This document shows, in pieces, positions 8,154 through 34,667 of a stretch of DNA of 64,000 nt. This DNA comes from Patescibacteria group bacterium (GTDB lineage Bacteria; Patescibacteriota; Patescibacteriia; PEXW01), in contig JBAYJA010000003.1 in assembly GCA_041665345.1 (NCBI GenBank), positions 39,202 through 103,201 of the forward strand, written 5' to 3'. The position numbers were made by a program, and so were the translations under genes. Each line of letters starts with the position of its first letter. Positions within the stretch are counted from its first letter, which is position 1. The notes below the pieces were generated by a model, which ran no database searches, was not told the DNA's origin, and worked only from the letters and a program-made list of their open reading frames with translations.

Positions 8154-8196
8154 GTCTTCCTCCTGTTTTAACAGTTTTTAGACGAATAAATACTTC

Positions 8197-8727
8197 TTAA
8201 TCATGGATGAGGCGCACCGCTGCCTGGCCATGACCACTTTTGTATGCCCATTCATTAATCCCCTCGGTATCAAAAACATGTGCCCAGGCAAAGGTCGGGT
8301 CATTGTTGTCCTGTGTCGATGACCAGTACCGACCGGTGGGTTCATACTCTCCCGCATCACTAAAACCGCCAATAATGGCACGGTTTTCATACATCACTCT
8401 GAGTTCGGATCTTGTGGGAAGACGGAATTCTACAGTTACACTAGGCACTTCGTCTGGGATGCGGAAGGATCCATCAAGATGATCTAACCCGTTGAAGTGA
8501 GTAGCGTAGGACATTGCTGCTTCCCATTCCATGGTAGAAGGGAGATCAACTGGGAGTACGTAGAACAGCTTGCCAGTTTCCGGAGAAATGCCAGCGATGA
8601 TCGTCCCATCTGATACTTTACTGCCTATACTGCCGGCAGATACGAACTGGAAACTCGTCGCCCAGGTTAGCGTGAACGCAATGAAAACGATAGTCCGAAA
8701 GTCCGTTATTCGCTTTTTAATGTGCAT
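8197..8727 (-). CDS. DUF1566 (Lcl C-terminal domain-like) secreted protein
   Basis: FRLPTRSELRVMYEN...GRYWSSTQDNNDPTFAWAHVFDTEG... matches the DUF1566 signature (WRLPT..EL...YWSST...AW.V.F..G). Start taken at MHIKKRITDF (ATG 8727, GAGGAGG SD). The N-terminal leader resembles the neighbouring genes. Confidence 0.6.
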   Translation of the reverse strand: MHIKKRITDFRTIVFIAFTLTWATSFQFVSAGSIGSKVSDGTIIAGISPETGKLFYVLPVDLPSTMEWEAAMSYATHFNGLDHLDGSFRIPDEVPSVTVEFRLPTRSELRVMYENRAIIGGFSDAGEYEPTGRYWSSTQDNNDPTFAWAHVFDTEGINEWAYKSGHGQAAVRLIHD

Positions 8728-8774
8728 GTGTTCCTCCTCTTTGCACAGATTTTCTGCTTCTTTCAATGCAGACT

Positions 8775-14164: not shown

Positions 14165-14173
14165 GAAAATTCT

Positions 14174-14587
14174 ATGCGAAGAAGTCCTGAAAGAGGTCAC
14201 CCTCAAGAGCTGGAGCAAACCCCAGTTCAAAAATACTGGGCTCAATACAATTTTTCCGGCATGGCGCCGCCTCCCGGCTCACCGGTTGAAGAGCGGTTGC
14301 TGAATATTTGCCAGCAGTATGTGAAGATTTGCCTTGAAACGACGGATTCTGGAAGAGTAACCCCTAGTCCGAATGTGCAAAAAGAAGCACTTCAGCATTA
14401 CACAAAATTAGAATCAGAAAGACGTATGCTGCACAATCAAATAGCAATTATGACTCTCGGGAGTATTCGAAGTAAGCTCCCCGAGCATGAAGCGAAACGT
14501 ATCGCAGATTTTGCAGCACAGGTAACGAATAATGGTTTGCGGATGAATGATTTAGAAGAGCTGCAAAAATCTGAACCAGAAGAGTAA
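14174..14587 (+). CDS. hypothetical protein (low confidence)
   Basis: 137-aa ORF in a lower-GC stretch, followed by a hairpin atagccaac gcgcatgtg ttggctat at 14615-14640. No recognisable domain and no clear SD site. Confidence 0.3.
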   Translation: MRRSPERGHPQELEQTPVQKYWAQYNFSGMAPPPGSPVEERLLNICQQYVKICLETTDSGRVTPSPNVQKEALQHYTKLESERRMLHNQIAIMTLGSIRSKLPEHEAKRIADFAAQVTNNGLRMNDLEELQKSEPEE

Positions 14588-17555: not shown

Positions 17556-17659
17556 GCCTACGCTGGATACGCGGGTTTTTCAAGGGTTGTTGACTACTCC
17601 AGGTGTGCGCGATAGGGTTAGAAAAACAAGACATTGCTCACTGATAGAAAGGAGCCAGC

Positions 17660-18040
17660 TTGAAGAAAATACTTTCCGCTTGTGCCAGGCACCCCATTCG
17701 ATTCTGGGTTAGCGTCGTTCTGGGCACGATCTTCATCTTTTGGTTTGTGGCTTCCAGGTTTGTACTAAGCCTATCCAATACCTTTGGAATCATTTTCCTC
17801 CTTGGCATACTCATTGGGTCGCTTGCGGCACGGCCTGATATATTCACGAAGTGCATGCAACGTTGGAAGTCGGTACTACAAGACGAAAGTGAAGATGCTA
17901 TGGTTCTGCGTTACCGTTGTACTTCCTGTGAGGCGATCTATACCGAAAAGACCCTCCCGAAGGATAAAGTCTGCTCTAAGGACTATGGTCGGCTCGTTAC
18001 TTACGATGCTATCGAAGACCGGCACCGGTCTCCCCTGTAG
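17660..18040 (+). CDS. small 2-TM membrane protein with C-terminal Cys-containing tail (CxxC...C)
   Basis: TTG start with an AAAGGAG SD. Two TM helices, then ...RYRCTSCEAIYTEKTLPKDKVCSKDYGRL. The tail motif C-x2-4-C-x-YTEK-x-VC-x-Y is shared with the next gene. Confidence 0.5.
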   Translation: MKKILSACARHPIRFWVSVVLGTIFIFWFVASRFVLSLSNTFGIIFLLGILIGSLAARPDIFTKCMQRWKSVLQDESEDAMVLRYRCTSCEAIYTEKTLPKDKVCSKDYGRLVTYDAIEDRHRSPL

Positions 18041-18133
18041 ACAATTACCCCACGCTCCTCGTGGGGTTTTTCTTGTTGACGAAAATCGCTGCAGAGATTA
18101 GGGTACGTGCAGAAACACACAGGAAAGGGAATT

Positions 18134-18496
18134 ATGAAAGCTCATTTTTTTCGCATACTTTGGTACGTGCTCATACTCATCGTGGCGCTGACGAATATTA
18201 CTATGCTTGGGTTTCTTACAGGCGCCATGGTGTTTATCATCACACCCAAGCCGGCTGATATTTTGCTCTGGAGCAGCATCGTTGTCGGGGTAGTTGCTGG
18301 GGTACTTTTGACGGTGCAGGAGGTACGTTATCTACGAAGACGTCGTCAACGCAAAACTATTATCCAACCCACAACGAACGTGATGTACCATTGCCCGCTC
18401 CCAGCGTGTCAGTACGAAACCGAAAAAGACGGAGTGTGCCCAGAATACTATACGCTCCTCAAAGCCCGGACGCGTGAAAATCGGCCAACGCCGTAA
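18134..18496 (+). CDS. small 2-TM membrane protein with C-terminal Cys-containing tail, paralog of 17660..18040
   Basis: GGAAAGGG SD before ATG 18134. Two TM helices, then ...MYHCPLPACQYETEKDGVCPEYYTL. Confidence 0.5.
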   Translation: MKAHFFRILWYVLILIVALTNITMLGFLTGAMVFIITPKPADILLWSSIVVGVVAGVLLTVQEVRYLRRRRQRKTIIQPTTNVMYHCPLPACQYETEKDGVCPEYYTLLKARTRENRPTP

Positions 18497-18526
18497 ACGC
18501 CTGCTCATCTGAGTCAGGCGTTTTTC
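18494..18526 (+). terminator. rho-independent terminator after the small membrane protein pair
   Basis: cgcctgctca tc tgagtcaggcg hairpin (18497-18519) followed by a ttttt run. Confidence 0.6.
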
Positions 18527-18609
18527 TATCGTCCCAACTCCCGCATTTCGTCGATTGTTAAACTCCTTTAAATATGTAATAGTTTATACACATTTACTGC
18601 AATGTTTGT

Positions 18610-19980
18610 ATGAGTGAAATATCACCTGAATTCGAAAATCAAGATGATGTGCAGCCACTTCCTGAGCATGAAGAGGCGCGAAAGGCATGGCCGAATATCC
18701 CCGAAACTTTTCCTGAGGGATTCCCGCCTGGTTACCGTCCGTGGGTAGACGGCTGGGCTTTTTCTTTGGAGAAAATGAAAGAGAAGAATGCTGATGGTAC
18801 CTACAAACTCCTCACCCTGGATTTGAGTATTAGTGAGGAGGAGTACATTGAGCGCGTCAATAGTGGACCGGCGGAATCACTAAGCGAGCGCGCGGAAAAA
18901 GAGTACAAGTGTGATATTCGTTGCAAGCACTGCTTTGAATGCAAAACAGACACCAATAACCCGCTCATGACATTCGACGAGGTGAAGGGCGTGGTCGAGC
19001 GCGCGAAAGCACTGGGGCTCGAAACGGTAAAATTTTTGGGACCCGGCGAACTGCTCCACAACCCAAAGCTTTTTGAGATTCTGGACTACTTCGAACAGGA
19101 GGGTATTACCATTTCTATTTTTACCAAAGGAGTTATCCTGGGTGACGATACATTAGCTGAAAAGAATTTTCACCTGTCCGCAAGCGAGTTGTGCAATAAA
19201 ATTGCATCGTATAGTACCGCGCGATTATTGGTTGGGTTTACCTCTGCTTCTCCTGACGTAGAGCAAGCGCGCATTGGTTCCACCATTCAAGACTTCAGTG
19301 AGAAGCGGAATCGAGGCCTAGAAAATGCAACGGAAGCAGGTATGAACAGTAACCCCCAGTTGCAGCGGATGGCACTCATTTGCGCGCCGGTGCTCCGGGA
19401 TAATATTGACGAGGTCCTTGCTATTTACCAGTGGGGAGCGAAGAGAAATATTCCCACGGTTGTAGCGCCAACTATGGTGAGTGGGAAAGGGCAGGAGCAA
19501 CCGGAAGTGACTGACACTGATTTTAAAGAACGCAGGCTTGTTGATCTGTATGCCAGCATTTACGAATGGATGGTACGTGAGGGCATTATGACGCTTGATG
19601 ACGTGAAACAGGAAAGTGTTTCTCCCTATGCGGGGTATGCATGCAATCAATTCATTAATGGTATGTTCATACGGAAAGACGGACGGGTGCAGGCATGCCC
19701 AGGCAACGAAAGTTACGTTTTCCGATACAGCAACGATATCCGCAAGGAAAATCTTGCTGAGGTGTGGAAGCACAGTGTTGGCTACAAGAAGCGAGAGCAG
19801 CTTGTGGAGAGTGGGAAAATTACCCTCACGCAGCCGTGCTACGCGAAGACCGAGGGCGAGCTTATGCTTGGGAATAAACCTGGCTCTATTCCAAAAGATT
19901 TCTACGAATCAGTTCTCCGCCGACTGGAGGTACGGTTGGGTGCACCGCAACCAGAAGCAAACGAACCATTTGAAGTGTAA
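18610..19980 (+). CDS. radical SAM enzyme with C-terminal SPASM-like Cys-rich domain (peptide/protein-modifying maturase family)
   Basis: CDIRCKHC (CxxxCxxC) at residues about 101-108, then a GPGELL glycine-rich SAM motif. C-terminal cysteines YAGYACNQF...GRVQACPGN...QPCYAK are typical of SPASM/twitch extensions. Lower GC than its neighbours. Confidence 0.75.
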   Translation: MSEISPEFENQDDVQPLPEHEEARKAWPNIPETFPEGFPPGYRPWVDGWAFSLEKMKEKNADGTYKLLTLDLSISEEEYIERVNSGPAESLSERAEKEYKCDIRCKHCFECKTDTNNPLMTFDEVKGVVERAKALGLETVKFLGPGELLHNPKLFEILDYFEQEGITISIFTKGVILGDDTLAEKNFHLSASELCNKIASYSTARLLVGFTSASPDVEQARIGSTIQDFSEKRNRGLENATEAGMNSNPQLQRMALICAPVLRDNIDEVLAIYQWGAKRNIPTVVAPTMVSGKGQEQPEVTDTDFKERRLVDLYASIYEWMVREGIMTLDDVKQESVSPYAGYACNQFINGMFIRKDGRVQACPGNESYVFRYSNDIRKENLAEVWKHSVGYKKREQLVESGKITLTQPCYAKTEGELMLGNKPGSIPKDFYESVLRRLEVRLGAPQPEANEPFEV

Positions 19981-20038
19981 AACGCCTGATGGTTTGTGTA
20001 GCGCCTTCATTCCCACATGGGATCAACCTCAATTTCTT

Positions 20039-20629
20039 ATGGCCTACAAAATTCTGTTCAATAACGAGGAATTCCATTTTCACGAGAATGACCTTCCTTG
20101 CCTGGTGCATTACAGAGAAAAGCAAGGCGGTTCACAATTCACGGTAACGCTGGTTGCTGATTTATTTTTGCGGGGGTCAAAGATACTTTTCCTTACAGCA
20201 TATCCCATGGCCAAGGATAACTTTGTAGAGCAGGTGAAAGGCGAGGAATCAAAAATCGCATTTATCACCAATGAAAGCCAGTTCAATACGAACGCACAGG
20301 TAATTATTCTGGAAAGCGGTAATGAAAAGCTGTTTTTGAAGGCTGTTGAAAAACTCGGCGATCTTCACGAGCGCGTCGTGCTAATAAAAAATATGGAAGT
20401 ATTCAGTGACGCAGTTTTTGATGCTTGTGAAAAACTGCAAAAAAGTATCCTTTCTGGAGATATTGATTCATGTGTGGCAAAAAAACGCATTAGCCACAAG
20501 CTCTATACAACAACAATTACATTTTCTGAGCCAGAAACTTCCTTGCCTTTCAAAACCCCAGTGCTGAAAACATACGTTGGATATCTGAAGACCGCCACCA
20601 AGGAAGGGTTTGTACAATTAGAAATGTAA
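20039..20629 (+). CDS. hypothetical protein downstream of radical SAM gene
   Basis: 196 aa from the first in-frame ATG after the rSAM stop. No SD site and no recognisable domain. The longer ORF 19616..20629 overlaps the rSAM gene out of frame and is not credible upstream of 19980. Confidence 0.35.
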   Translation: MAYKILFNNEEFHFHENDLPCLVHYREKQGGSQFTVTLVADLFLRGSKILFLTAYPMAKDNFVEQVKGEESKIAFITNESQFNTNAQVIILESGNEKLFLKAVEKLGDLHERVVLIKNMEVFSDAVFDACEKLQKSILSGDIDSCVAKKRISHKLYTTTITFSEPETSLPFKTPVLKTYVGYLKTATKEGFVQLEM

Positions 20630-20683
20630 AATTGATCGCCGTTTGTTTATCTCCCCAGTTCCCACATAGAGCCAGCAGCAAAT

Positions 20684-20717
20684 AAAAAAGCAATCGACAG
20701 GAGTTCCATCGATTGCT
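20684..20717 (-). terminator. rho-independent terminator for 20728..21183
   Basis: gcaatcga (20690-20697) / tcgattgc (20709-20716) stem with an A-run upstream on plus, which is a T-run on minus. Confidence 0.55.
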
Positions 20718-23735: not shown

Positions 23736-24428
23736 TCACTTTTTTGGGGTGCAGGCGTATACCCTATGTACTGTGAGATCTTTTTCTCCCTCTGCCATGA
23801 GCATTCCCTTTGTATCAACAATTCGTATGCTGTAGCCAAGTCGCTTCGCATGGTTTTCAATTTCGTCCAAACGCGCATACGCACTCGTTCCAATGAGCAC
23901 AACTCCTGATGCTGTAAGAAAAGCTGGTGCTTCCTTCAAGAATTGTTGCAGTGCGTTGTAGTTCTCATCAAAGCCTGATTGCAGAAGAATGTCCGTAACC
24001 GGCGACTCCGCCCGGTTAAAAGGGTGATTCCAGAAAATGAAGTCAAACTTTTCTTCATTCCGGAAGGCAGCAAATAAATTACTTTCCCTTACGTCCATTT
24101 GTACGGCAAATCTCTGAGCATTGAGTAAACAGTTTTGGACAGCGGCTGGATTGATATCGGTGGCAGTTACCGTTGCACCATGTAACGCAGCAAAGACCGC
24201 AACGATGCCCGTTCCAGTCCCAATCTCCAGCAATTTTTGTTTCTGAACAAGTTTTGGGATTACGTTTGCGAAATACGCACTATCTGTAAAGTATTTGGGG
24301 GAAAAAACTTCAGGGAGCACCAAAATCTTTTTTCCAAAAATTTCCACTTCATAAGGCGTGGCGTGCTTCCGCATTTTTGCAAATTGTTGCTCTACTTTTT
24401 TTGACCATTCTGGGTAGTCCATATTCAA
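23736..24428 (-). CDS. SAM-dependent methyltransferase, small-domain (MTS/HemK/RsmC-like) family
   Basis: Motif I LEIGTGTGIVAVFAALHGA, D-I-N at ...TATDINPAAV and the motif IV variant NHPF (NPPY-like). Confidence 0.7.
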   Translation of the reverse strand: MNMDYPEWSKKVEQQFAKMRKHATPYEVEIFGKKILVLPEVFSPKYFTDSAYFANVIPKLVQKQKLLEIGTGTGIVAVFAALHGATVTATDINPAAVQNCLLNAQRFAVQMDVRESNLFAAFRNEEKFDFIFWNHPFNRAESPVTDILLQSGFDENYNALQQFLKEAPAFLTASGVVLIGTSAYARLDEIENHAKRLGYSIRIVDTKGMLMAEGEKDLTVHRVYACTPKK

Positions 24429-24562
24429 AAAGAATAATAATCCAGAGACTGCTCGAAGTTTGAATCTGGTAGCCCTTATAGGAAAAGGCTGGAATCAGCT
24501 TATTGTAAGTCTTGTTAGTTTCAACGAGTTATATAGTGGTCAATTTTCCGAGCAACAGCAGG

Positions 24563-25702
24563 CTACTCTAAATTTGGCACCTGCCCATAATGTGTGAGCC
24601 CATTGTGTAGTAGATTGTATATTTCCATGTCGGGCAAAGGGTGCTTAGTAAAGCGCTCGATAATTGCTACATGCTCTGCTGGGTCAGCCTCTTTATCAGT
24701 TTGGTAGTGAAATGAAAAATTAGTTATATATAAGGCATTCTCGCTTGCGGGATTTTTTTCATCATGTTCGCCCAATTCTTCAACATTGTTTCGGATATCC
24801 ATAAACCAGGGCTTATCGGGGAAATTTAATCCAGGCGTTAAAATGCAGTTAATATCAATAAAGATCATAAATGGCATGTCACCTGGATTTTGCGTCATTG
24901 CGGATTTGATTAACCTACCAACATCTCCACGGATTAACTGCTCTTCATGCATTACTCCAGGTGTATGGATAACACCAGGTCTATGACGACTCTTCGCTTC
25001 TACAGCGACTCTTATTCCTCTCTCTTGATGGGTTGCTATGAACTCGCAATGTCTCGTTTGTGGCTTGCTCCTATCAAGAAACTCAATGGTGAATCCAAGT
25101 TGAGTAAATAAAGACGCGATTGCTACTTCATAGCGTGCGCCCTGGTATTGATTTTGGTCTTTCAATCTATTCAACAAACGTACGGGAAGTTTGGCACGAT
25201 GCTGAAGGCAGTAAATATCAAAAGCTAAAGACAATAGAGACCTGCTCCAACCATCAGGAATTGCGCTCCATTTTTTATTTTCAGAATTTTGAGCAGTAGC
25301 ATTCTTTTGTTTCCATGCTTGGAAATGTATGTAACATTGAGTAATAAAGTGTTGCTGCACAGAAGGTAATTGTAGCTGATCCTTTATCCATGCCCGTCCT
25401 AAAGTAACTGCGAGAATATCTATCAGAAACTCATGAAAAGTTTGTTCTATTGGAAGAGAGTGGAACAATCTTGAACCAACTGCTCTAACTCGTTTACCTT
25501 GAAAAATACTTTGTACGTGTGGGAGAAAGTACCCTTGTGCTTGAAGTCGTGATTGCTCAGCCTGCATGTCAAGAATGTATTTTTTAACAGCCTGAAAATC
25601 CTCAGGAGTCGGAGGATTGTTATCAGCATCATGATGACATTTTTTATACTTCTTCCCACTGCCACAATGGCATGGATCATTCCGACCAATTTTTTTTGTC
25701 AT
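24563..25702 (-). CDS. SEC-C motif protein fused to a PD-(D/E)xK (Mrr/restriction-endonuclease-like) fold domain
   Basis: N-terminal RNDPCHCGSGKKYKKCH SEC-C zinc motif. Later YEVAIASLFTQLGFTIEFLD ... IRVAVEAKSR fits the E / D / ExK nuclease core. Overlaps the upstream gene by 26 nt. Confidence 0.55.
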   Translation of the reverse strand: MTKKIGRNDPCHCGSGKKYKKCHHDADNNPPTPEDFQAVKKYILDMQAEQSRLQAQGYFLPHVQSIFQGKRVRAVGSRLFHSLPIEQTFHEFLIDILAVTLGRAWIKDQLQLPSVQQHFITQCYIHFQAWKQKNATAQNSENKKWSAIPDGWSRSLLSLAFDIYCLQHRAKLPVRLLNRLKDQNQYQGARYEVAIASLFTQLGFTIEFLDRSKPQTRHCEFIATHQERGIRVAVEAKSRHRPGVIHTPGVMHEEQLIRGDVGRLIKSAMTQNPGDMPFMIFIDINCILTPGLNFPDKPWFMDIRNNVEELGEHDEKNPASENALYITNFSFHYQTDKEADPAEHVAIIERFTKHPLPDMEIYNLLHNGLTHYGQVPNLE

Positions 25703-26897
25703 TCGGTACTAATTTAGCACTGTTGTCTACAAGATATTTTTGAAGTGCGGGAGGTAGATCTATGCTTCCTGCATCGTGTAATTTGACCCCCACAATTTGC
25801 TTGAACAATGACATTGCCGATCGAAAAACAAGAAGGGCATCTGCCTTTTCATTTCTGGGTTTACGTGCCCAGAAGTGTAGGTAAGAACGACGAACGCCCT
25901 GGATGTCTGAAAACTTTTTTTGCTGCTCTGGTGGGATACGATTGAATGCCTTTAATACACCTAATCTTCTTTCGTGCATCAACCTCTCAAAAGTCCTCTG
26001 GAAAAGCAAAGCCTCCTCCTCTTCGGTGATCGGATGATTTTTAAAAGTCACACTGCTTGTTTTCCAAAGAAAAATTGCTAACATTTCTCCAACAACACCA
26101 CAAACAGCGATGCAAGAGAGGTAGTCACCCAGGCAAAAGTTTCTCTTTGCAGAAACCAAGGGATCCACAAGGTATTTCGAAATTTCTGGATGAGCGGAGA
26201 CGATACCTTGGTGCGTTTCAATTGTCGTGGCCTCGACATATCGATCAAGTATTTCCACAGTTAAGTCAGTCACTTGCCTTTGAAAAAACTCTCCTAATTG
26301 AAAGGATGTGTGGGTAAACTCATCTTTGATTCCATCTGCAGTTATATCCCCATAAGAAAGATAGTCCTTAATTTGAGTACGTTTGATAATTGGGCCAAAT
26401 ACACCAAACTTAATTACTGCTTTCTTGGGGCCACTTTTGGGCAACAACTCCTTTACTGCGTCCTGAACATCTGTTTCCCAGTTCTCAAAAGAAACAAGAG
26501 CGGGTTGTGTTGGAATAGCATCAAACTCACTTTGTGTAATACCTTCAATTTTTTCCCATGACAAACCTAGAGCATTAAAGGTAAGTGGATTAGGGACGTG
26601 CCTTTTGTGCAATTCTGGGAAAGGGAGAACCGCGAATACGTCAGTAGGATTGCTAATGGATTTAATAAGACGAACATTTTTTATGTCCACTAGGCTCCTA
26701 CCATCTTGCAATATATCCAGCTCTTCTTGAGTCTTTTGTGTAAAGTCATCAACCTTAAGCCCCAATGCATTTCGTGTAATGGAGTCAGGGATTAGGAACC
26801 TTTTCCCGTGGTTGATGATATATTTTCTTCCATCTGGCCCCTGTGCTTTGTCCATAGAATTACGTAGTTGTTTTCCTTTTTCTATATAATTTTGCAC
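25677..26897 (-). CDS. hypothetical 406-aa protein, translationally coupled to the SEC-C/nuclease gene
   Basis: GTG start at 26897, or ATG at 26855. No recognisable domain. Tight overlap with both neighbours. Confidence 0.5.
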   Translation of the reverse strand: MQNYIEKGKQLRNSMDKAQGPDGRKYIINHGKRFLIPDSITRNALGLKVDDFTQKTQEELDILQDGRSLVDIKNVRLIKSISNPTDVFAVLPFPELHKRHVPNPLTFNALGLSWEKIEGITQSEFDAIPTQPALVSFENWETDVQDAVKELLPKSGPKKAVIKFGVFGPIIKRTQIKDYLSYGDITADGIKDEFTHTSFQLGEFFQRQVTDLTVEILDRYVEATTIETHQGIVSAHPEISKYLVDPLVSAKRNFCLGDYLSCIAVCGVVGEMLAIFLWKTSSVTFKNHPITEEEEALLFQRTFERLMHERRLGVLKAFNRIPPEQQKKFSDIQGVRRSYLHFWARKPRNEKADALLVFRSAMSLFKQIVGVKLHDAGSIDLPPALQKYLVDNSAKLVPNDKKNWSE

Positions 26898-27411
26898 GCT
26901 CCAAAATTGGTTCTAGTTCTGCTAGTTTTTCATCTAGTTCTTCAAGGCTTAGACCTTCCAAGAACCCATTGTGCAAGACGGAGGATTTGTACAAGTCGCG
27001 TAATTTGTAAGCCTTATCTAGCCCATTAGCGCGCGCTCGCCAATCAGGGTTATCCAGTAGACCTAAATGAACTTGTAAAAGTTTCTCATCGGGCAAGCTT
27101 TCGGTCATCAACTCCTGCCAACCCTTACTCTTCGTAAGCTCCTGAGGCTTTTCGGCAGATCGGTCACTGTAACCCCCTTGGCGCATAGCAGCAGAGACCG
27201 ATTTTCGGGGATTTTCGGATAAAATACGGGCTACGTTGCGCTGTTTGTGAGTAGGCATATCTAACCTAATTATACCCTCAAAACAGCGTTCTGTGACCAA
27301 CTCTGGACCTATAAACGGGTTTCTAGCTAGCCTTCTTACCCCCGCGATACTTAAAGGCCCTCCTAAAGCCTTTGTCTTCAGCCTCTTCGACAGTAGCGCA
27401 ATAGAACTCAC
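26860..27411 (-). CDS. HTH protein with Terminase_2 (phage terminase small subunit)-like DNA-binding motif
   Basis: ...KSVSAAMRQGGYSDRSAEKPQELTKSKGWQEL resembles the NATQAAIRAGYSEKTA...N motif of Terminase_2. The start is uncertain (GTG 27411 or ATG 27258) and overlaps the Mrr-like gene. Confidence 0.4.
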   Translation of the reverse strand: MSSIALLSKRLKTKALGGPLSIAGVRRLARNPFIGPELVTERCFEGIIRLDMPTHKQRNVARILSENPRKSVSAAMRQGGYSDRSAEKPQELTKSKGWQELMTESLPDEKLLQVHLGLLDNPDWRARANGLDKAYKLRDLYKSSVLHNGFLEGLSLEELDEKLAELEPILERAKLYRKRKTTT

Positions 27412-28438
27412 CCTTTCGTGTTTCTATTTTAGTTTTATCGTATTGCTGGTCGAAAGGAAGATGATATATCTTTGTACTATCTACCTTTGAAATGTTGCAC
27501 TTAATACAGGGGTATTGTTTATCTAATGGTAAGTTTTCTTTTAATTCGATATGAAGCTCAGATGCAAAACGGCGAGCGAGATCGGAAAGCTTAGTTGCAG
27601 TGTAGAAAATCGCACGAACTTTTTTATCTGGATTTTTATCTTTGTATTGGAAAACCGTGCCAAAAAATTGAAAAATGTGTTTTTCATATATAGTTCTAAA
27701 TTGTGCCCAATTTTTACATTGCACAATTATAAAGTCTTTACCTTTTCGACAGATCAAATCGCGCCCTAGATCCTCGAAGCCTTTTAGTATACCCACATAC
27801 TCAACATCATATCCCTCTGCTTCAAATAGAAATCCAATGTACCGTTCATAAATCCTACCAATTAACCAGGATGATTTTGGGCGTTTCCAAAATCGATCCA
27901 GAGCCATTTGATTCCGTTCAACACTTGGGAGTTTACGGTATTCTTCCTTTGAGAGATATTGAGTAACCTGATCTACCTTTTCTTCATCAGAGTACTCCGC
28001 GAACATTTTCCGATCCTCTTCAGTTGGAACATCAACCTCTTCTTTTAAATCAACAAGAAAAGGAGCTATCGATTCATAGTATTCAATTATGTACTTTGCG
28101 ATACGAGCTTCTTTCTCTGCTTCACGTCGTAATCTTGACTGTTCTTTCACAACCTCACTGGCTTGGATTGCGGGATGTTTTTTTCTTCTTAAGTAATCAG
28201 ACTGGGCTGCGTCACGGGCTTTAAATAACTCTTTATAAGCATTTGCTAGCCATGGAAATCCCTGTTGGCGTTCTCGAGCCATTTGATGCACACCCTCTTC
28301 AAGTTTTTTATACCATGCAATACCGACATTACGTTCTTGTTTTTCAGATTTTAAATATAGTTCGTAGGATGATTTTTCTGAGGCGATTAACCTAAGAATG
28401 TTATTAAGTTCGTTTTTCTTTTCTTCAAAATATCCCAT
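27323..28438 (-). CDS. Mrr-like (PF04471-type) restriction endonuclease with N-terminal coiled-coil region
   Basis: ...RIYERYIGFLFEAEGYDVEYVG...GFEDLGRDLICRKGKDFIIVQCKNW... matches the Mrr_cat E / DxGxD / QxK pattern. The N-terminal roughly 180 aa are charged and helical. Confidence 0.7.
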   Translation of the reverse strand: MGYFEEKKNELNNILRLIASEKSSYELYLKSEKQERNVGIAWYKKLEEGVHQMARERQQGFPWLANAYKELFKARDAAQSDYLRRKKHPAIQASEVVKEQSRLRREAEKEARIAKYIIEYYESIAPFLVDLKEEVDVPTEEDRKMFAEYSDEEKVDQVTQYLSKEEYRKLPSVERNQMALDRFWKRPKSSWLIGRIYERYIGFLFEAEGYDVEYVGILKGFEDLGRDLICRKGKDFIIVQCKNWAQFRTIYEKHIFQFFGTVFQYKDKNPDKKVRAIFYTATKLSDLARRFASELHIELKENLPLDKQYPCIKCNISKVDSTKIYHLPFDQQYDKTKIETRKGEFYCATVEEAEDKGFRRAFKYRGGKKAS

Positions 28439-28441
28439 AAA

Positions 28442-28798
28442 TTATAGTTTATTTTTTGTATAGCTGCATGATGGGTAATTAGCGCATCCCCAAAATGCAC
28501 CATACCGCCCGCTTCTTGGTATCAACGTACCTCCGTCATTTGGGCATTTTAGTCGGTTATCATTTTTCTCAAGCAGCATTTGATGAATAAATCCTCTGCC
28601 CTTAACTTTTTCATTGACCTCGTCCGGCATGATAGATGGCCCGAGTTGAACAATTTCTGAAACTAAAGTGGCTGTGTCTAAATTACCAGCAACCTCAAAA
28701 GCAGCTTGATCTCGAAGCTTTTGACGATGTTTGTCAACGAAATGTTTAACAACACTCCAAATTATAATTATGGCTACAATTGCCCAAAATACGTACAT
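28442..28798 (-). CDS. membrane-anchored topoisomerase-type C4 zinc-ribbon protein (zf-C4_Topoisom)
   Basis: N-terminal TM MYVFWAIVAIIIIWSV. C-terminal KCPNDGGTLIPRSGRYGAFWGCANYPSCSYTK is the TopA-type zinc-ribbon signature. Its stop is 4 nt from the Mrr-like start. Confidence 0.65.
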   Translation of the reverse strand: MYVFWAIVAIIIIWSVVKHFVDKHRQKLRDQAAFEVAGNLDTATLVSEIVQLGPSIMPDEVNEKVKGRGFIHQMLLEKNDNRLKCPNDGGTLIPRSGRYGAFWGCANYPSCSYTKNKL

Positions 28799-28859
28799 AT
28801 TCTAATTATACGCTTAAAACAATTATCTGTGATGATTGCTGTATTATATTCGCGCTAGC

Positions 28860-29111
28860 CTAGATTCCTATAATGGCCGCCTTAACATCTCCCCGCTTTT
28901 TTCCCCAGCCTTTCCAAGATAATCCTTTTTTACCCTTTCGTTTAGTTCTTTGAGCTTTTAGTTCTTCGGTTGCTAAATCTCTAAGGGATCTCATTGTAGG
29001 GTCGTCCCCATCATCCTTTATGCTTTCTTGGATGCCACGATTCAGCGCTTTAGTAAACCTTTGGCCCCAGTTTGTACTAGGTCTTCTAGATTTTTTAACA
29101 CTTTTTTTCAT
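28860..29111 (-). CDS. small basic hypothetical protein
   Basis: 83 aa, Lys/Arg-rich (MKKSVKKSRRPSTNWGQRFTKALNRG...KRKGKKGLSWKGWGKKRG). First gene downstream of the membrane protein in the operon. Confidence 0.4.
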   Translation of the reverse strand: MKKSVKKSRRPSTNWGQRFTKALNRGIQESIKDDGDDPTMRSLRDLATEELKAQRTKRKGKKGLSWKGWGKKRGDVKAAIIGI

Positions 29112-29122
29112 AATGATTCAAA

Positions 29123-29494
29123 CTAAGAAAATAACTTATATATTAAACCCATAAATAACCAAAAACATGGGATTGCTAAACCAAAAATTGTTATCCATCC
29201 GTGATAGTAAGTTGAGATTGCGCGACCATCAACATTTTCAGACGCTGCTGATTTCCAGAAATATGTTAATTTCTTATTGTGAAGGCTTCCGATTAACCAA
29301 AATGCTGTTACGTAAATGACGCCGAGTGTTAAGCCAGTGCTACCATATTGCCAAATTATACTGCCACCAATTAGCAATGTGGCCAAAGTTTCTTGAGTTT
29401 CCTTTTTCTTTACATGGCTACGCCATAGGAGTAAATATCCTAAAACTCCAGTTATTGAAATTATGAAAAAGTTTGCAATTATATTCCAATCCAT
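29123..29494 (-). CDS. small multi-TM membrane protein
   Basis: MDWNIIANFFIISITGVLGYLLLW... with 4 predicted TM segments. Start at ATG 29494 is preferred over 29563. Confidence 0.45.
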   Translation of the reverse strand: MDWNIIANFFIISITGVLGYLLLWRSHVKKKETQETLATLLIGGSIIWQYGSTGLTLGVIYVTAFWLIGSLHNKKLTYFWKSAASENVDGRAISTYYHGWITIFGLAIPCFWLFMGLIYKLFS

Positions 29495-29628
29495 ATCTCT
29501 GAACGGTTTTATCTGGTAGAAAGCACAAAGCCCCCCGCCAGCGATGACCTTTCGGCCACCCATACCCCTTTCGGAGCATGACCGTTCAGAGTGCTCTGGA
29601 CGAGGAGCTTTATACTCTGAACGGTTTT
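29495..29628. promoter_or_regulatory. repeated 13-14 nt motif (CTCTGAACGGTTTT) in divergent intergenic region; candidate operator sites
   Basis: ctctgaacggtttt at 29497-29510 and 29615-29628 (direct), accgttcagag at 29581-29591 (inverted). These sit between the divergent genes 29123..29494(-) and 29739..30557(+). Confidence 0.35.
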
Positions 29629-29738
29629 GTTGCCATGCCCTAGCAAAGCTAAGGTTTAGGCGATAAAATTAAATTGCTAGTATTTATACTTCAATTGCTT
29701 GATAATTAGAGTGAAACATATCAATTTTACTCGAAAAA

Positions 29739-30557
29739 ATGATAAATGTAAAGGATAATCCGAGTCTTTCAAAGGCGTATTATCGGTGGTTACGAAGAAA
29801 AAAGACCGTGGATTTTGATGTTCTACGTAGTGGATTTTTGAATGCGAATAAAACGTATCTCCATCAAATCAAGTCGTGTATAAATGATGATAAGTTTCAT
29901 AGCATTATGTCAGTTGGAATGGAAGTCGCAGCGTTCTTTAATGCAAACAGAGCGTATTCGGGCTATGAAACTTTAGTAGAAAAAAACATTCTCCCAAAAA
30001 AGGTTTTTAAAATAAAACCACTGACTGAGACATCAGAGGACTTTGCAAATCATTTAATCAATAAATACCATTTGTCAGAAACTACGCTTAGAGAACTCTC
30101 CGAAATTGCGTTTAAGTATCTTCGATCGATTCTTTCAAAGACGAAAAACGGTATACTTCCTTTAGAAAAGGCGAGGTCAGTACAATTCATAAACAATTGC
30201 ATCGATAGATATTTCCCGATTTTAATCCGTTATCTTAAAAAGAAGTACAAATTAAAAAAACTTATATATCTTCGCAAGATAAATAGTCACACATGTAACA
30301 CAGCATGTCCTCGTTGTGGCAAACTTTTGATACGGACGAAAATATATGAACGATGTACAAGGACAGAGAACCGGCATTGCCAAATGGGTTCTAACGCACT
30401 CAGAAGAGGAAGGAAAAAAGATGACAAAAGCTTTGTTGGTAGTTGTAGTTGTTGTGGGGTGTTTTCCCCTTTACTCAAAAGCCACGTATTAAGTGGCGAA
30501 CAACTGCTTTTTTGCAGCCAAAGGTGTTATGAAAGAGTAAGAAAAAAACTTCACTAA
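29739..30557 (+). CDS. AT-rich hypothetical protein with C-terminal Cys-rich (zinc-finger-like) region
   Basis: 272 aa. C-terminus ...HTCNTACPRCGKLLIRTKIYERC...HCQ...CSCCGVFSP...CSQRC. Followed by a terminator. Confidence 0.45.
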   Translation: MINVKDNPSLSKAYYRWLRRKKTVDFDVLRSGFLNANKTYLHQIKSCINDDKFHSIMSVGMEVAAFFNANRAYSGYETLVEKNILPKKVFKIKPLTETSEDFANHLINKYHLSETTLRELSEIAFKYLRSILSKTKNGILPLEKARSVQFINNCIDRYFPILIRYLKKKYKLKKLIYLRKINSHTCNTACPRCGKLLIRTKIYERCTRTENRHCQMGSNALRRGRKKDDKSFVGSCSCCGVFSPLLKSHVLSGEQLLFCSQRCYERVRKKLH

Positions 30558-30576
30558 TTTTAAGTAAAGCTGAATT

Positions 30577-30597
30577 GGCCCATAATGGGCTTTTTTT
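30577..30597 (+). terminator. rho-independent terminator
   Basis: gccca taa tgggc hairpin followed by ttttttt. Confidence 0.6.
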
Positions 30598-30860
30598 GTT
30601 TCCCATTTAATTATGTCCAAAAAGCTGGGGATAAGTTAGCGCGTGCATAATCAAAATGTCGCGAGGAGCACACTCACAGTGCTCAAAGGGCGACAGTAAA
30701 TAAATCCTTTGAAGATTGTGAGCTACGCCTCTAGACCAGCTCGCCAAACGGTGATGATAAGCAGTCTCATAGTACTAGCAGTAAATACTATAAGACTACT
30801 ATCACCGGCGGCAGACTGGGGAGAGGGAAGGTGCCTTAAGTAACTAATCCGGTGGGTAAT

Positions 30861-31043
30861 ATGTCAACTAAGCGACAAGAAGCAAACCAGACAAAGCAGA
30901 TCAGGGTTGCAAAAGGTAACCATAAAGGGTTGAAGATTTTTGCCGCTCGCGAAGGAATGCCAATGATGGCCTTAGCAGATCAAATTATCAGCCAATATCT
31001 TTACGAAACATATCGCTGGCCAGAATACCATGTTGACGATTAA
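30861..31043 (+). CDS. small putative ribbon-helix-helix-like regulator upstream of integrase
   Basis: MSTKRQEANQTKQIRVAKGNHKGLKIFAAREGMPMMALADQIISQYL has a beta-strand then two helices. GGTGGG SD before ATG 30861. Confidence 0.35.
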   Translation: MSTKRQEANQTKQIRVAKGNHKGLKIFAAREGMPMMALADQIISQYLYETYRWPEYHVDD

Positions 31044-31221
31044 ACAGTGTAGACAAATTGAGCCAAGCCTTTCTGAACTTTCTGATGAGGAAATTGTTCA
31101 TCTTCGTGATTCTATGTATGAACTAGCCACTCTGGCTTTTGAATCCACTCAAAAACAAGGGGGTGTTTCCAAAAATCCCACTTGGGTAATGCCAACTTTT
31201 AAAGAAGACGCTAATATATAA
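31030..31221 (+). CDS. small hypothetical protein upstream of integrase (low confidence)
   Basis: 63-aa ORF overlapping the previous stop by 14 nt and ending 6 nt before the integrase start. Confidence 0.3.
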   Translation: MLTIKQCRQIEPSLSELSDEEIVHLRDSMYELATLAFESTQKQGGVSKNPTWVMPTFKEDANI

Positions 31222-31226
31222 ATGCG

Positions 31227-32756
31227 ATGACTACTAAAGAACAAAATATCAAACGAGGAGTTATATACGTTCGTGTTTCCTCAAAAGATCAGGTAGATAA
31301 CACCAGCCTTGAATCTCAGGAAAAGGCCTGTGGGGAGTATTGCCTTCGAAACCATATTGAAGTTGTTAAAGTTTTTATTGAACAAGGTGAATCCGCAAAG
31401 AGTGCAGATCGGACAGAGTTTAATAAGGCAATCCAATTTTGTGGCATCCAAAAAAATAACATTGGGTATTTTGTTGTTTACAAACTTGACCGCTTTGCTC
31501 GAAATCAAGAAGACCATGTGACTGTTCGGGCATTGTTAAAAAAGTATGGCGCTGAGCTGAAGTCGGCAACTGAACCGATCAATGATTCGCCAATAGGAAA
31601 AGCGATGGAAGGTATGCTTTCAGTTTTTGCAGAGTTTGATAACAATGTTCGTACTGAACGAACACGGGGAGGAATGCTTGAAAGAATTCGACAAGGGGCT
31701 TGGGTTTGGTCTGCGCCGCTTGGATATAAACGTGTGGGCGGGGTAAAAAATATCTCGCCGGATGAATTAACTGCGCCACATATAAAACAAATCTTCAATT
31801 TGTACGCAAAAGGCATATACACGTATAAGGCAATTGCTAATTTAATGGACACGGCTGGAATGCGCACGAGGTATGGCAAGCGCCCACGCGCTCAGCTGAT
31901 TGAGAAGATACTACGCAATCCAATTTATTACGGTCACATAGAGGCGTTTGGTGAAGAACACAAAGGTAGTTTCCCGCCATTGATTAGTGAAGAGCTTTAC
32001 TTAAGTTGTCAGCCAAACAGCAAGAACTTAAAAGGCCACGCGGCACCTCGATCGGCAAATAACCCCATGTATCCGCTTAGAGGAGTTGTAGTGTGCGAAG
32101 AGTGCGGCACGAGTTTTACAGGAAGTACTTCTACAGGGCGTGCCAGTCAACGATATTCCTATTATCATCATTACAAAAAAAGTTGTTCTAAAGCCAAGAG
32201 CATCCCTCGCGAATCTTTTGAACAAGAGTTCGTAGAGTATTTGGAGTCAATTACGCCAAGCCTAAAATACGAAAAATGGTTTAAGGCAATAGTTATCGAT
32301 ATTTGGCAAAATAACTACAAAAACATTAGCTCACAAAATCAGAAAGCGAGATTAGAGCTTACACGACTTGAGGCTGAGAGAGATCGTGTATTTACCATGA
32401 TGCGTCAAGGCAAGCTAACTGATGACGAGTTTAGTGAACAAAAAAATGCCGTCAATTTACAAATAGCGAATAAATACCAGCAGCTGAATGAAAAGCAGTA
32501 TGAGGGCTTAGACATGGAGAAAACTTTAGACGCCTGTTTTAGCTTTGTTCGAAACACAGCAAAAACCTGGCGCGAGGCCGATTATGCTGGGCGATTACAA
32601 TTCCAGAAACTTGTTTTTCAAGATAAGCTCCAATTTAATGGGAAGAGGTTTGGAAACGCCAAATTGTCCCCAATCTACGAGATGAATAGGATGTTTGACG
32701 GGAATAAATCTAGCTTGGTAGCCCCACGGGGAATCGAACCCCGATTACCGGCTTGA
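31227..32756 (+). CDS. large serine recombinase (serine integrase)
   Basis: Resolvase catalytic domain GVIYVRVSSKDQ (nucleophilic Ser), recombinase domain, and a C-terminal Zn-ribbon CEECGTSF...YYHHYKK.C, coiled coil. The last 41 nt overlap tRNA-Glu on the other strand (...GIEPRLPA reads through the T-arm). Confidence 0.9.
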   Translation: MTTKEQNIKRGVIYVRVSSKDQVDNTSLESQEKACGEYCLRNHIEVVKVFIEQGESAKSADRTEFNKAIQFCGIQKNNIGYFVVYKLDRFARNQEDHVTVRALLKKYGAELKSATEPINDSPIGKAMEGMLSVFAEFDNNVRTERTRGGMLERIRQGAWVWSAPLGYKRVGGVKNISPDELTAPHIKQIFNLYAKGIYTYKAIANLMDTAGMRTRYGKRPRAQLIEKILRNPIYYGHIEAFGEEHKGSFPPLISEELYLSCQPNSKNLKGHAAPRSANNPMYPLRGVVVCEECGTSFTGSTSTGRASQRYSYYHHYKKSCSKAKSIPRESFEQEFVEYLESITPSLKYEKWFKAIVIDIWQNNYKNISSQNQKARLELTRLEAERDRVFTMMRQGKLTDDEFSEQKNAVNLQIANKYQQLNEKQYEGLDMEKTLDACFSFVRNTAKTWREADYAGRLQFQKLVFQDKLQFNGKRFGNAKLSPIYEMNRMFDGNKSSLVAPRGIEPRLPA

Positions 32757-32790
32757 AAAGCCGATGTCCTAACCGTTAGACGATAGGGCC
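32716..32790 (-). tRNA. tRNA-Glu (anticodon UUC)
   Basis: RC gives GGCCCTA TC GTCT AACGGTTA GGAC A TCGGC TTTTCAA GCCGG TAATC GGGGT TCGATTC CCCGT GGGGCTA CCA, a cloverleaf with T-loop GTTCGATTC, anticodon loop UUUUCAA (UUC) and encoded CCA. Closely resembles bacterial tRNA-Glu. Confidence 0.85.
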
Positions 32791-32930: not shown

Positions 32931-34298
32931 TTACTTGAACCCGAAGAGTGGTGGGAAGAGGAAGATGACAAGGGAAGCCCAGGCTGCATAGACCGGTATG
33001 TAGTTCGTTTGCCATCGCTCAATGTGCGCGAACGTCCCCCGCCCGCGGAGGAAACGCACGTACAGCACGGTTGACCACGCAAGATTGACGAGCAAGATAA
33101 AATTTTCGCCCAAGGCCGCAACCCGGTTTGGGCTAAAGCCGAATTCAGAGATGCGCGAGGCAATTGCCCACAGTGCCACTGCATCGGCCAAGAGGGCGCT
33201 CACCAGCAGGACCACTTGCAAGACATCAAAGGCGTTGCGAGGGGCCAGCGGGGCGCGGGCGGAGATGGAGTAGACCAGCAAGCCAAGGACGACCACTAAG
33301 AGCAAATCGAAGGCAATGAGGATGTTGCGGTCAACGTCTATGCCATGGCCTGACACCACGATGGTGACCAGGAACACCACCAAGACGATGGCGAAGAGGG
33401 GCGTGAACAGCCGGGTTAACACTGGCGCCATGTTTTCAATCACACTCTGCTTCGCTTCCACCAACCACGAGCCAATGATAACCGCTCCCGCTGCACCGCA
33501 CGGGATAATCCAGGTGCCAACAATTGGCTCTACATTGAAACCGATTGACTGAAAAATCGCAAAGAGAAAGCCAGTGAGCACGCCGCCACCCAAGGCAATG
33601 AGCACGTAGTAAATGAGCAGCTCGCCTGTGTAGCGGATGAAGTCCATGCGGCCGGCAACGTCACGCCAGCGTTTTCCGGCATAGGCCAGACCCACAATGA
33701 GCCACATTGCAATGGGCACGTGCAAGCTGGTGAGAGCTTCGGTGGAGCCGCCGGCCAGGAAAGGGTAGGCGTTCGCACCTATCGCACCAATGACAAACCC
33801 AATAGCCGCGGGAATGATCGTCTGACGAGAGACGCCCCGCTTCCAGATGAAGTAGGCAGCCAAGATGGGCAGGACGAAGAAGCTGATATTCCGCATGTAG
33901 AAACTTTCATCATGCTCAATATCCAGGCCGAAGATCGTCGGAAGCTTCACCAGTAAGCCCGCGACTATCGCCAAGCCAAAAGCGACGGCTGTTTCTCTGC
34001 GGCTCCCCCGCTTGGAGTGCTCTGCATCCGGAGAAGTGAGCACGAGCTGCTTCCACAGCCGATCCGAATGCTCCCGGGCGAATTCTTTGGACAGTGCATC
34101 CAGATTCCCCATCCGCTTGACGGCAATCAGAAACGCTTCATCCGCAGCTAAGCCGGCATCGGTCAGCCCGGTGATGTGCTCGCGCAGATGGTCTTCCAGT
34201 TCGGCCACGTCGGTTGCCTGGATAACTTGGTGGCGCTGGAGGAAGTTTCGCCACTGATTGATTTGCTCCTCAAGCTGTTCGGTCTGGGGTGTTGGCAT
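32931..34298 (-). CDS. HAAS (DUF1700)-like N-terminal domain + polytopic membrane (DUF4153-like) protein, partner of PadR
   Basis: N-terminal ...LEDHLREHITGLTDAGLAADEAFLIAVKRMGNLDALSKEF fits the HAAS pattern, followed by at least 8 TM segments. Its start is 9 nt after the PadR stop. Confidence 0.55.
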   Translation of the reverse strand: MPTPQTEQLEEQINQWRNFLQRHQVIQATDVAELEDHLREHITGLTDAGLAADEAFLIAVKRMGNLDALSKEFAREHSDRLWKQLVLTSPDAEHSKRGSRRETAVAFGLAIVAGLLVKLPTIFGLDIEHDESFYMRNISFFVLPILAAYFIWKRGVSRQTIIPAAIGFVIGAIGANAYPFLAGGSTEALTSLHVPIAMWLIVGLAYAGKRWRDVAGRMDFIRYTGELLIYYVLIALGGGVLTGFLFAIFQSIGFNVEPIVGTWIIPCGAAGAVIIGSWLVEAKQSVIENMAPVLTRLFTPLFAIVLVVFLVTIVVSGHGIDVDRNILIAFDLLLVVVLGLLVYSISARAPLAPRNAFDVLQVVLLVSALLADAVALWAIASRISEFGFSPNRVAALGENFILLVNLAWSTVLYVRFLRGRGTFAHIERWQTNYIPVYAAWASLVIFLFPPLFGFK

Positions 34299-34307
34299 AT
34301 GCGTTGC

Positions 34308-34667
34308 TTAGACTACGGCTGCAGGGTGAAATGATTGGAGCAGCGTGGAACCGATTCCCCGAATTGTCGCTTCAACTGCCCGCCACTGCTCAAGTTCTTC
34401 CGCCAGCTGCGTTTTACCACTGGCGGTGATGCGGTAGTACTTCCGCTTCCGTCCATTCTCCGCGGCTTTCCACTGCCCTTCAATAAATCCCAGCCGCTCC
34501 AGGCGATGCAGGACGGGGTAGAGCATGCCGTCGGTCCAGGTGATTTGGCGGGCAGAAGCTTCCTGCACCTGTTTGAGGATTGCGTAGCCGTAATTCTCCT
34601 GCTGTACCAAAGTGGCAAGGACAATTGGGGTAGAAGAGGCGGCAATCAGGTCTTTGTTAATCTCCAT
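34308..34667 (-). CDS. PadR family transcriptional regulator
   Basis: YGYAILKQV...GMLYPVLHRLERLGFIEGQW....RKRKYYRITASG is the PadR winged-helix signature. Confidence 0.85.
   Translation of the reverse strand: MEINKDLIAASSTPIVLATLVQQENYGYAILKQVQEASARQITWTDGMLYPVLHRLERLGFIEGQWKAAENGRKRKYYRITASGKTQLAEELEQWRAVEATIRGIGSTLLQSFHPAAVV

Follow-up and report, generated by a model that had tools for sequence, protein, structure and literature searches.

How did a block of low-GC DNA packed with nuclease genes come to lie beside a tRNA-Glu gene of a patescibacterium, and what purpose does it serve? The question is raised by a window of 64,000 nucleotides (nt) of contig JBAYJA010000003.1 (assembly GCA_041665345.1), to which all coordinates given here refer unless another locus is named, and whose host belongs to the Patescibacteria, or candidate phyla radiation (CPR). 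An initial annotation, made from the sequence alone, described here a tRNA-associated integrative element with a single nuclease-rich operon. On balance we favour the view that the locus is an element of 8.25 kb, inserted at tRNA-Glu by a large serine recombinase (LSR), and that its cargo of nuclease modules likely protects the host, and with it the element, from phages or other invading DNA.

The GC content is 0.37-0.44 within about 23.5-32.7 kb compared to 0.53-0.57 in both flanks, which bears out the roughly 8 kb of lower-GC DNA first described. At the right end of this region lies the sole tRNA gene detected in the window by ARAGORN, with which Rfam agrees (63 bits), an intact tRNA-Glu(UUC) on the reverse strand (32716-32790) that is the target of integration. 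Its last 9 nt, comprising the acceptor 3' strand, the discriminator base and CCA, are the right attachment (att) core TGGTAGCCC (32716-32724) and form the 3' end of the functional tRNA. A copy of these 9 nt, the left core, is found at 24467-24475, at the GC transition and in the intergenic gap between a methyltransferase gene and a gene encoding a SEC-C protein. These two are the only copies of TGGTAGCCC in the window, and no direct repeat longer than 9 bp is present at the ends of the element.

As a 9-mer alone is weak evidence, we built the junction of the unoccupied site, joining 11 nt of the left flank (AAGTTTGAATC), the core TGGTAGCCC and 12 nt of the tRNA (CACGGGGAATCG), and searched metagenomes for exact matches. 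This chimeric junction, which is non-contiguous in the window, is matched exactly in two metagenome contigs (L086 and L087), and in both of them an intact tRNA-Glu is followed by the trailer GATTCAAACTT; the tRNA-Glu of L087 is identical to that of the window and the one of L086 is a variant. Since the 11 nt that precede the core follow an intact tRNA-Glu elsewhere, positions 24456-24475 represent the displaced 3' end of tRNA-Glu together with its native trailer (24456-24466 on the reverse strand; GATTCAAACTT in tRNA sense), the latter being host DNA immediately outside the element. The element itself thus comprises positions 24476-32715 and one 9-bp core, about 8.25 kb in all. Beyond the 11-nt trailer and 5' of the tRNA the two contigs bear no relation to the window, and therefore they are not the island locus in its empty form.

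The locus thus displays what is expected of an island inserted in a tRNA gene: the tRNA beside the integrase is intact, and its 3' end is repeated directly at the opposite boundary. An 8.25-kb integrative element lies at the 3' end of tRNA-Glu. The left boundary had tentatively been placed at 24468-24476, which is the correct site shifted by one base. The accompanying proposal that the integrase arrangement rebuilds the tRNA 3' end is right as to integration at tRNA-Glu, yet the tRNA sequence supplied by the element amounts to 9 nt at most. The neighbouring methyltransferase (23736-24428; MTS type, Pfam 7e-14) lies beyond the att core and outside the element. The trailer GATTCAAACTT follows tRNA-Glu unchanged in three unrelated contexts (24456-24466 of the window, 1265-1275 of L086 and 727-737 of L087) and may act as a conserved signal for processing or termination, or belong to a shared attachment site.

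The recombinase is a protein of 509 aa encoded on the forward strand (31227-32756). It has a resolvase domain (PF00239, 1e-31) with the serine nucleophile (catalytic motif GVIYVRVSSKDQ; motif YVRVSSKDQ), followed by a Recombinase domain (PF07508, 5e-12) and a zinc beta-ribbon (Zn_ribbon_recom, PF13408, 4e-9), the order that defines an LSR. As had been noticed from the outset, its gene ends within the tRNA-Glu(UUC) of the opposite strand: the open reading frame (ORF) contains no stop before the att core, spans it, and terminates at a stop codon (32754-32756) located 41 nt inside the tRNA, the final 11 codons of the integrated form being tRNA sequence. In the excised form the ORF would run into the left end of the element (24476-24598) to encode 539 aa, of which the final ~40 codons would lie there, creating a different C-terminus, and this reading would converge with the SEC-C gene. 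A homologous LSR of another CPR genome (locus L122), 50% identical in the catalytic domain, likewise ends inside a tRNA gene of the opposite strand, tRNA-Ala(UGC), with an overlap of 65 nt. The arrangement is therefore a family trait and no accident. In its assembled form the L122 gene (11916-13479) has a frameshift (198 + 308 aa); a borderline match to a SAM riboswitch (44.6 vs 44.4 bits) is found upstream of it at 11504-11606 and a group I intron (13909-14205, 68 bits) immediately past its tRNA-Ala. The 8-mer TGGTGGAC of the 3' end of this tRNA is repeated at 10226 of L122, a possible left junction at which there is no GC step.

Small genes on the forward strand accompany the recombinase. 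An ORF of 63 aa called by the gene caller just upstream of it (31030-31221) matches no family and shows no similarity to its counterpart in L122; from its position it may encode a directionality factor or a regulator. Another ORF of 63 aa (30852-31043) possibly encodes a ribbon-helix-helix regulator, the match to Omega_Repress being weak and under the cut-off (E 0.003). A third gene (29739-30557) encodes a 272-aa protein with a Cys-rich C-terminus (p272) that has no match in Pfam, PHROGs, NCBIfam, PADLOC or PDB and only chance-level similarities in phage genomes (E 0.1-0.7).

The gap between p272 and the string of cargo genes is occupied by an RNA. On the reverse strand, positions 29543-29662 match the LOOT RNA motif (Rfam RF03000; Weinberg et al. 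2017, PMC5737381) over its full length, model positions 1-121, with a covariance-model score of 91.5 bits that is well over the gathering threshold of 46.4 (E 6e-17). A second LOOT RNA (10737-10856 of L122, reverse strand; 81.2 bits) adjoins the homologous integrase. In both cases LOOT is on the strand opposite the LSR and upstream of it, by 1.6 kb in the window and by 1.1 kb in L122, and no LOOT was detected in seven other CPR loci (~125 kb in total). Many paired positions differ between the two copies, about 22 nt located 3' of the Rfam model are conserved as well (GCTGGCGKGGGGYTYTGTGYTT), and the ORFs downstream of the two are unrelated. In the searchable literature neither the function nor the genetic context of LOOT is described, and what is new here is its position inside a serine-recombinase element at two independent loci. 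As a matter of location it is well supported that LOOT is part of the element core together with the LSR and the small ORFs, where it may have a role of its own. A role as a bridge-RNA-like guide was considered and rejected, as its complementarity or identity to attL or attR was no better than that of shuffles at both loci. A pattern search of IMG/VR for additional copies returned six chance matches, 0 of them LOOT according to Rfam. Two reverse-strand ORFs that match no family follow, one for a predicted membrane protein of 146 aa (29123-29563) and one for a basic protein of 83 aa (28860-29111), the latter known as an ORF only. The first 21 nt of the 146-aa ORF overlap LOOT, and hence translation more likely begins at M24, near 29494.

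The seven reverse-strand genes had been read as one operon (24563-29563) packed with overlaps. The packing is real but some of the overlaps are artefacts of choosing the longest ORF (183 aa reduced to 132 aa and 406 aa to 392 aa), and the single operon is not upheld, as three or more transcription units are predicted for the cargo. A 31-nt repeat occurs on the reverse strand in two copies that are 81% identical, each with a sigma-70-like promoter. The distance from the end of the -10 box to the start codon is 6 nt for copy A (28802-28832; ATG at 28798) and 10 nt for copy B (27266-27296; ATG at 27258). The presence of this promoter-like repeat ahead of both implies two nearly leaderless, co-regulated units, predicted unit A with a zinc-ribbon (Zn-ribbon) protein and an Mrr_cat nuclease, and predicted unit B with a small protein (p132), a HEPN protein and the SEC-C protein; the stretch upstream of unit A holds LOOT and the 146-aa and 83-aa ORFs. 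Elsewhere the SEC-C protein, the HEPN protein and the Zn-ribbon/Mrr_cat pair each have homologues that stand alone in unrelated neighbourhoods, and therefore the seven genes do not make up one operon or one system.

No DNA methylase is encoded within 24476-32715 as judged by Pfam, PADLOC, PHROGs and NCBIfam, in keeping with the initial annotation, which had found no methylase partner and had taken the neighbouring enzyme to be of another type. The units thus lack the cognate DNA methyltransferase of a classical type II or III restriction-modification (R-M) system. The two proteins of restriction-endonuclease fold that had been recognised are both present, and with the HEPN protein the nuclease types rise to three.

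Unit B begins with p132 (26860-27258, reverse strand), previously taken as a 183-aa ORF (p183). The gene callers agree on the shorter start, and most of 1041 representative homologues align from residue 1. The family is large and has an 'AGYS' helix-turn-helix (HTH)-like consensus (S.S.AMR.AGYS...), suggesting that p132 is probably an HTH DNA-binding protein. It had been described as Terminase_2-like, a suggestion that we discard, as neither p132 nor any of 43 relatives has a Pfam match.

The second gene of the unit (25677-26855, reverse strand; the longest ORF, to 26897, has 406 aa) encodes a 392-aa protein that was thought to have no recognisable domain. No profile in Pfam, PADLOC, PHROGs or NCBIfam matches it. 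Nevertheless its C-terminal part has the all-helical fold of the HEPN superfamily in an AlphaFold model that is confident for residues 150-356, and carries within the Rx4-6H motif of that superfamily an R-x4-H (R322, H327) that is invariant in 10 sequences; based on model and motif together the protein is a HEPN protein and hence a predicted RNase. The family is very rare, with 18 homologue clusters of which 16 cover only the C-terminal 240 residues. The additional N-terminal domain of 140 residues, which is modelled with low confidence, is common to one relative only (P0002). Within residues 25-115 the protein contains two similar segments, TRNALGLKVDDFTQKTQEELD and TFNALGLSWEKIEGITQSEFD.

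The last gene (24563-25702, reverse strand) encodes 379 aa, with an N-terminal SEC-C zinc motif (8e-9), a middle domain and a C-terminal nuclease of the PD-(D/E)xK fold, a fusion that had been proposed correctly. Its model (pLDDT 89.8, the predicted local distance difference test) displays the alpha-beta-beta-beta-alpha-beta core of the superfamily with the invariant acidic residues E192 and E220 and the (D/E)xK element E235-x-K237. More than 830 full-length homologues, mostly from CPR, are known, and they stand alone beside type II and III R-M, AbiEii, MNT/HEPN and SocA/Panacea genes. A profile-profile link between the SEC-C and the Mrr_cat families was sought and was not significant.

Could the nuclease genes be addiction or stabilisation modules of the toxin-antitoxin (TA) kind, for example a HEPN toxin restrained by the small HTH protein? 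The p132 and HEPN genes are 4 nt apart in one unit, a short HEPN homologue in another locus (L089) follows an HTH_3 gene, and the island has become fixed in each of the three populations sampled, all of which is to be expected of such modules. Yet neither MNT nor any other known antitoxin domain is found by Pfam, PADLOC, PHROGs or NCBIfam, and the neighbouring ORFs show no match to NTP_transf_2 or Polbeta, as a HEPN-MNT pair would. The neighbours of HEPN genes at other loci are unrelated to p132 and to the SEC-C protein and differ from locus to locus, and homologues of the SEC-C and Mrr_cat proteins are found without partners of this kind. We thus consider a pure addiction function unlikely, bearing in mind that TA and abortive infection (Abi) roles can coexist. 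A conserved HEPN partner was also sought in L088, where the neighbours proved unrelated. In L089 the HEPN-only relative of 243 aa (7928-8732) starts 3 nt after a tRNA-Ala(CGC) and is preceded by HTH_3 and HNH-repeat genes, this locus being another tRNA-adjacent variable spot.

Unit A encodes on the reverse strand a 118-aa protein (28442-28798) with an N-terminal transmembrane (TM) helix and a topoisomerase-type C4 zinc ribbon (Zn_ribbon_Top1, 7.8e-11), followed by a 371-aa nuclease (27323-28438) with an N-terminal coiled coil, an Mrr_cat domain (PF04471, 3.5e-9) and a C-terminal 'sunset' domain (NCBIfam NF051437, 1.5e-6); both had been recognised as a membrane-anchored zinc-ribbon protein and an Mrr_cat endonuclease with a coiled-coil N-terminus, and both assignments stand. 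Residues D223, D227 and Q240-x-K242 are invariant in the alignment of the nuclease. The nuclease has the Mrr_cat domain of type IV (Mrr-like) enzymes but not their N-terminal winged-helix domain: no Pfam match to Mrr_N is found in residues 1-190, a region that is helical and coiled-coil-like. At all CPR loci examined (L120-L123, L127 and L128) the nuclease gene directly neighbours that of the 118-aa protein, with an overlap or a gap of 2-4 nt, and two natural fusions of 471-475 aa (P0249 and P0191) carry the TM helix, zinc ribbon, coiled coil, Mrr_cat and sunset domain in one chain. The 118-aa protein would tether the Mrr_cat DNase at the membrane. The zinc ribbon of the P0191 fusion is degenerate.

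The pair might also be a conserved membrane nuclease of CPR housekeeping, acting for instance on taken-up DNA for nucleotide salvage, and a mere passenger of the element. CPR bacteria rely on scavenged nucleotides, and the nuclease has more than 3,330 homologues, the best 120 of which are 61-73% identical over the full length. Its partner has a membrane anchor, and the setting of the pair can be plainly chromosomal, with comEC and ndk adjacent in L127 (ftsA-ftsZ-comEC-ndk-pair-rpmB) and with dprA and topA near it in L128 (HTH-pair-ATPase). On the other hand, the pair sits here on low-GC foreign DNA in a mobile element, its neighbourhoods are not syntenic, and the positive-inside rule predicts a cytoplasmic location for the zinc ribbon. 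In L120 and L122 the pair is found in islands beside tRNAs or an LSR. Moreover, Mrr_cat relatives at 37-50% identity are present in 26 IMG/VR contigs, including lysogeny modules of temperate viral contigs, where one lies directly after a CI-like repressor (L103) and another directly before a serine integrase (L105). We consider a housekeeping function rather improbable for the pair carried here, yet given the conservation of the pair and its frequency in ordinary chromosomal settings it is a serious rival for this module. The genomes of cultured phages contain no match to the Mrr_cat protein. An apparently 'split' Mrr_cat gene in L126, taken as a possible natural inactivation, turned out to be a run of N in the scaffold.

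That the block is a decayed prophage or a phage satellite similar to phage-inducible chromosomal islands (PICIs), in which p132 would act in packaging like a small terminase, is very doubtful. Its small size, the insertion at a tRNA and an integrase beside the att site are in line with such an origin, and the p132 consensus resembles the N-terminal HTH of small terminases (TerS); 1 of 44 p132 relatives matches phrog_641 terS (9e-4) and the TerS DNA-binding domain of PDB 2cmp is matched at E 0.52. However, these similarities to TerS are not significant. Neither Pfam nor PHROGs nor NCBIfam reveals a capsid, portal, primase/replicase or large terminase, a search of 50,697 phage genomes gave nothing meaningful for p183 and p272, and neither the attP junction nor relatives of the integrase are present in IMG/VR. 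Finally, a new multi-gene defence system that is active only as a set of all seven genes is hardly credible despite their tight packing on one strand and the promoter motif used twice, as each module occurs alone elsewhere and the combination is repeated at no other locus examined.

We return to the view that the cargo serves in defence. We infer such a role because the cargo proteins have nuclease folds and no methylase, are carried on a mobile element, and have homologues among defence-island genes in the case of the SEC-C protein and in lysogeny modules in the case of Mrr_cat; a type-IV-like or abortive-infection role, suggested at first for the nucleases, is a reasonable reading of their gene context. 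We propose that the LSR recombined the TGGTAGCCC core of attP with the final 9 nt of tRNA-Glu(UUC), which have the same sequence, whereby the tRNA would have stayed intact, while its native trailer and a 9-nt copy would have been displaced by 8.25 kb. The core of the element would consist of the recombinase, two or three small ORFs and LOOT, transcribed away from the recombinase, and the cargo would be an accretion of independent nuclease modules placed under at least two copies of one promoter. In one module the Zn-ribbon protein may hold the coiled-coil Mrr_cat DNase at the inner face of the membrane. The second set would combine the small HTH-like protein, the RNase-type HEPN protein and the SEC-C/PD-(D/E)xK nuclease. 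The DNases may act independently of a methylase, in a type-IV-like manner, or by self-targeted abortive action, and the HEPN protein may cleave RNA abortively.

Several observations weigh against this proposal. At least two copies of the 9-mer arise in 6 of 100 shuffles, and dyad symmetry around the att core is nothing over background. The comparison with related genomes that the initial annotation had advised shows the displaced-tRNA junction elsewhere, but an empty site of the same species was not found, L086 and L087 being different loci and not island-free versions of this one. The island is present in 3 of the 3 metagenomes that hold this organism, at 99.96-100% identity, and therefore its present-day mobility is not proven. 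The Mrr_cat protein shows a degree of conservation that is uncommon among defence genes, and its surroundings in L127 and L128 are housekeeping genes. No system model of PADLOC-DB v2.0.0 is matched by the cargo proteins, the only matches being the 20-residue SEC-C motif and the flanking methyltransferase to mad2; the initial annotation had likewise been unable to assign the gene combination to a named defence system. Lastly, the known co-occurrences of LOOT with an LSR are two only.

The search for an empty site took several routes. When the proteins of the flank genes were looked up by exact match, all contigs returned bore the island, and the breaks of contigs within the tRNA in SRR6484324 are uninformative. 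A genome scan anchored on a 455-aa flank protein yielded no close host relative and hence no empty site, this anchor being scattered over many phyla at about 65% identity. The gene of this multi-pass membrane protein lies beside that of a PadR regulator (32931-34667, reverse strand). Its relatives at 61-69% identity are found in metagenome-assembled genomes of Actinomycetota, Chloroflexota, Gemmatimonadota, Verrucomicrobiota and others, a distribution that suggests wide horizontal spread. On the other side of the element, a second low-GC block (17600-20700; 0.45-0.49) encodes a 456-aa radical SAM (S-adenosylmethionine) protein (18610-19980) and, at 17660-18040 and 18107-18496, two small proteins that both contain a TM helix and CxxC pairs; this block may be another acquired cluster.

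The features shared with L122 invite a broader and distinctly tentative thought, to which we give only a limited chance of being right. CPR hosts may harbour a family of small elements whose LSR targets tRNA 3' ends and spans its own attP, the swap of its C-terminus possibly serving as a directionality switch. In these elements LOOT would be an obligatory part of the core and would regulate integration, excision or maintenance or act in them as a cofactor, and the elements would ferry hitherto unrecognised CPR-specific immune nucleases such as the Mrr_cat pair, the SEC-C protein and the HEPN protein.

What could be learned from this locus? Few defence systems are known in Patescibacteria, the genes LdgA and DdgA being among those described (PMC12366544). 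These bacteria are hard to grow, and the element offers three compact candidate modules with clear catalytic residues that can be tested in E. coli. The Zn-ribbon/Mrr_cat pair, with thousands of homologues, is among the most conserved accessory-looking gene pairs of the phylum, and whether it serves in defence or in DNA uptake and salvage would inform CPR biology in general. The presence of LOOT in the core of an LSR element yields a direct, testable hypothesis for an orphan RNA, and CPR genetics could gain a useful tool from a serine integrase whose core is defined, 9 bp long and located in a conserved tRNA.

How does the element compare with systems already described? Mobile islands that are borne by tRNA genes and carry defence genes are already known in kind. 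Like the P4-like satellites, PICIs, tycheposons and pipolins, the present element has an integrase beside an intact tRNA, a displaced tRNA 3' fragment at the far end, a foreign base composition and stand-alone cargo of the immunity type. It differs from these islands in that its integrase is a serine and not the usual tyrosine enzyme, that the 9-bp core lies at the very end of the tRNA and is crossed by the integrase ORF, that replication or packaging genes are not recognisable, that the host is a CPR bacterium and that a LOOT RNA is part of the core. Among tycheposons a minority have large serine recombinases (bioRxiv 10.1101/2020.12.28.424599). With the LSRs of phages and of integrative and conjugative elements (phiC31, Bxb1, A118, TP901-1) the recombinase shares the set of Resolvase, Recombinase and zinc-ribbon domains, the catalytic serine and a short attP/attB identity, whereas here no stop precedes the att core, the integrated and the excised forms would differ in length (509 and 539 aa) and C-terminus, and the directionality factor is only a candidate, the 63-aa ORF. 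To our knowledge, the well-studied large serine integrases target protein-coding genes or intergenic sites and not the 3' end of a tRNA.

The nucleases likewise resemble known enzymes in their catalytic parts and depart from them elsewhere. The Mrr_cat protein has the D...QxK signature of Mrr-type (type IV) enzymes and, like them, no cognate methylase, but instead of Mrr_N it contains a long coiled coil and the C-terminal 'sunset' domain, and it has a membrane-anchored Zn-ribbon protein as an obligate partner or fused to it. The HEPN protein has the helical fold and the invariant Rx4H of HEPN RNases such as AbiV, the C-terminal domain of AbiA, LsoA/RnlA, the HEPN-MNT toxins and Csm6, yet it differs from those of Abi and TA systems in matching no HEPN profile of Pfam, PADLOC or PHROGs, in having no MNT partner, in its extra N-terminal domain of 140 residues and in the rarity of its family. 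What sets this element apart, despite its likeness to known tRNA-borne islands, is the combination of an LSR acting on a 9-bp core at the tRNA end, an integrase ORF that spans this core, a CPR host, three uncatalogued nuclease families, one of them newly assigned to HEPN, and a LOOT RNA in the core.

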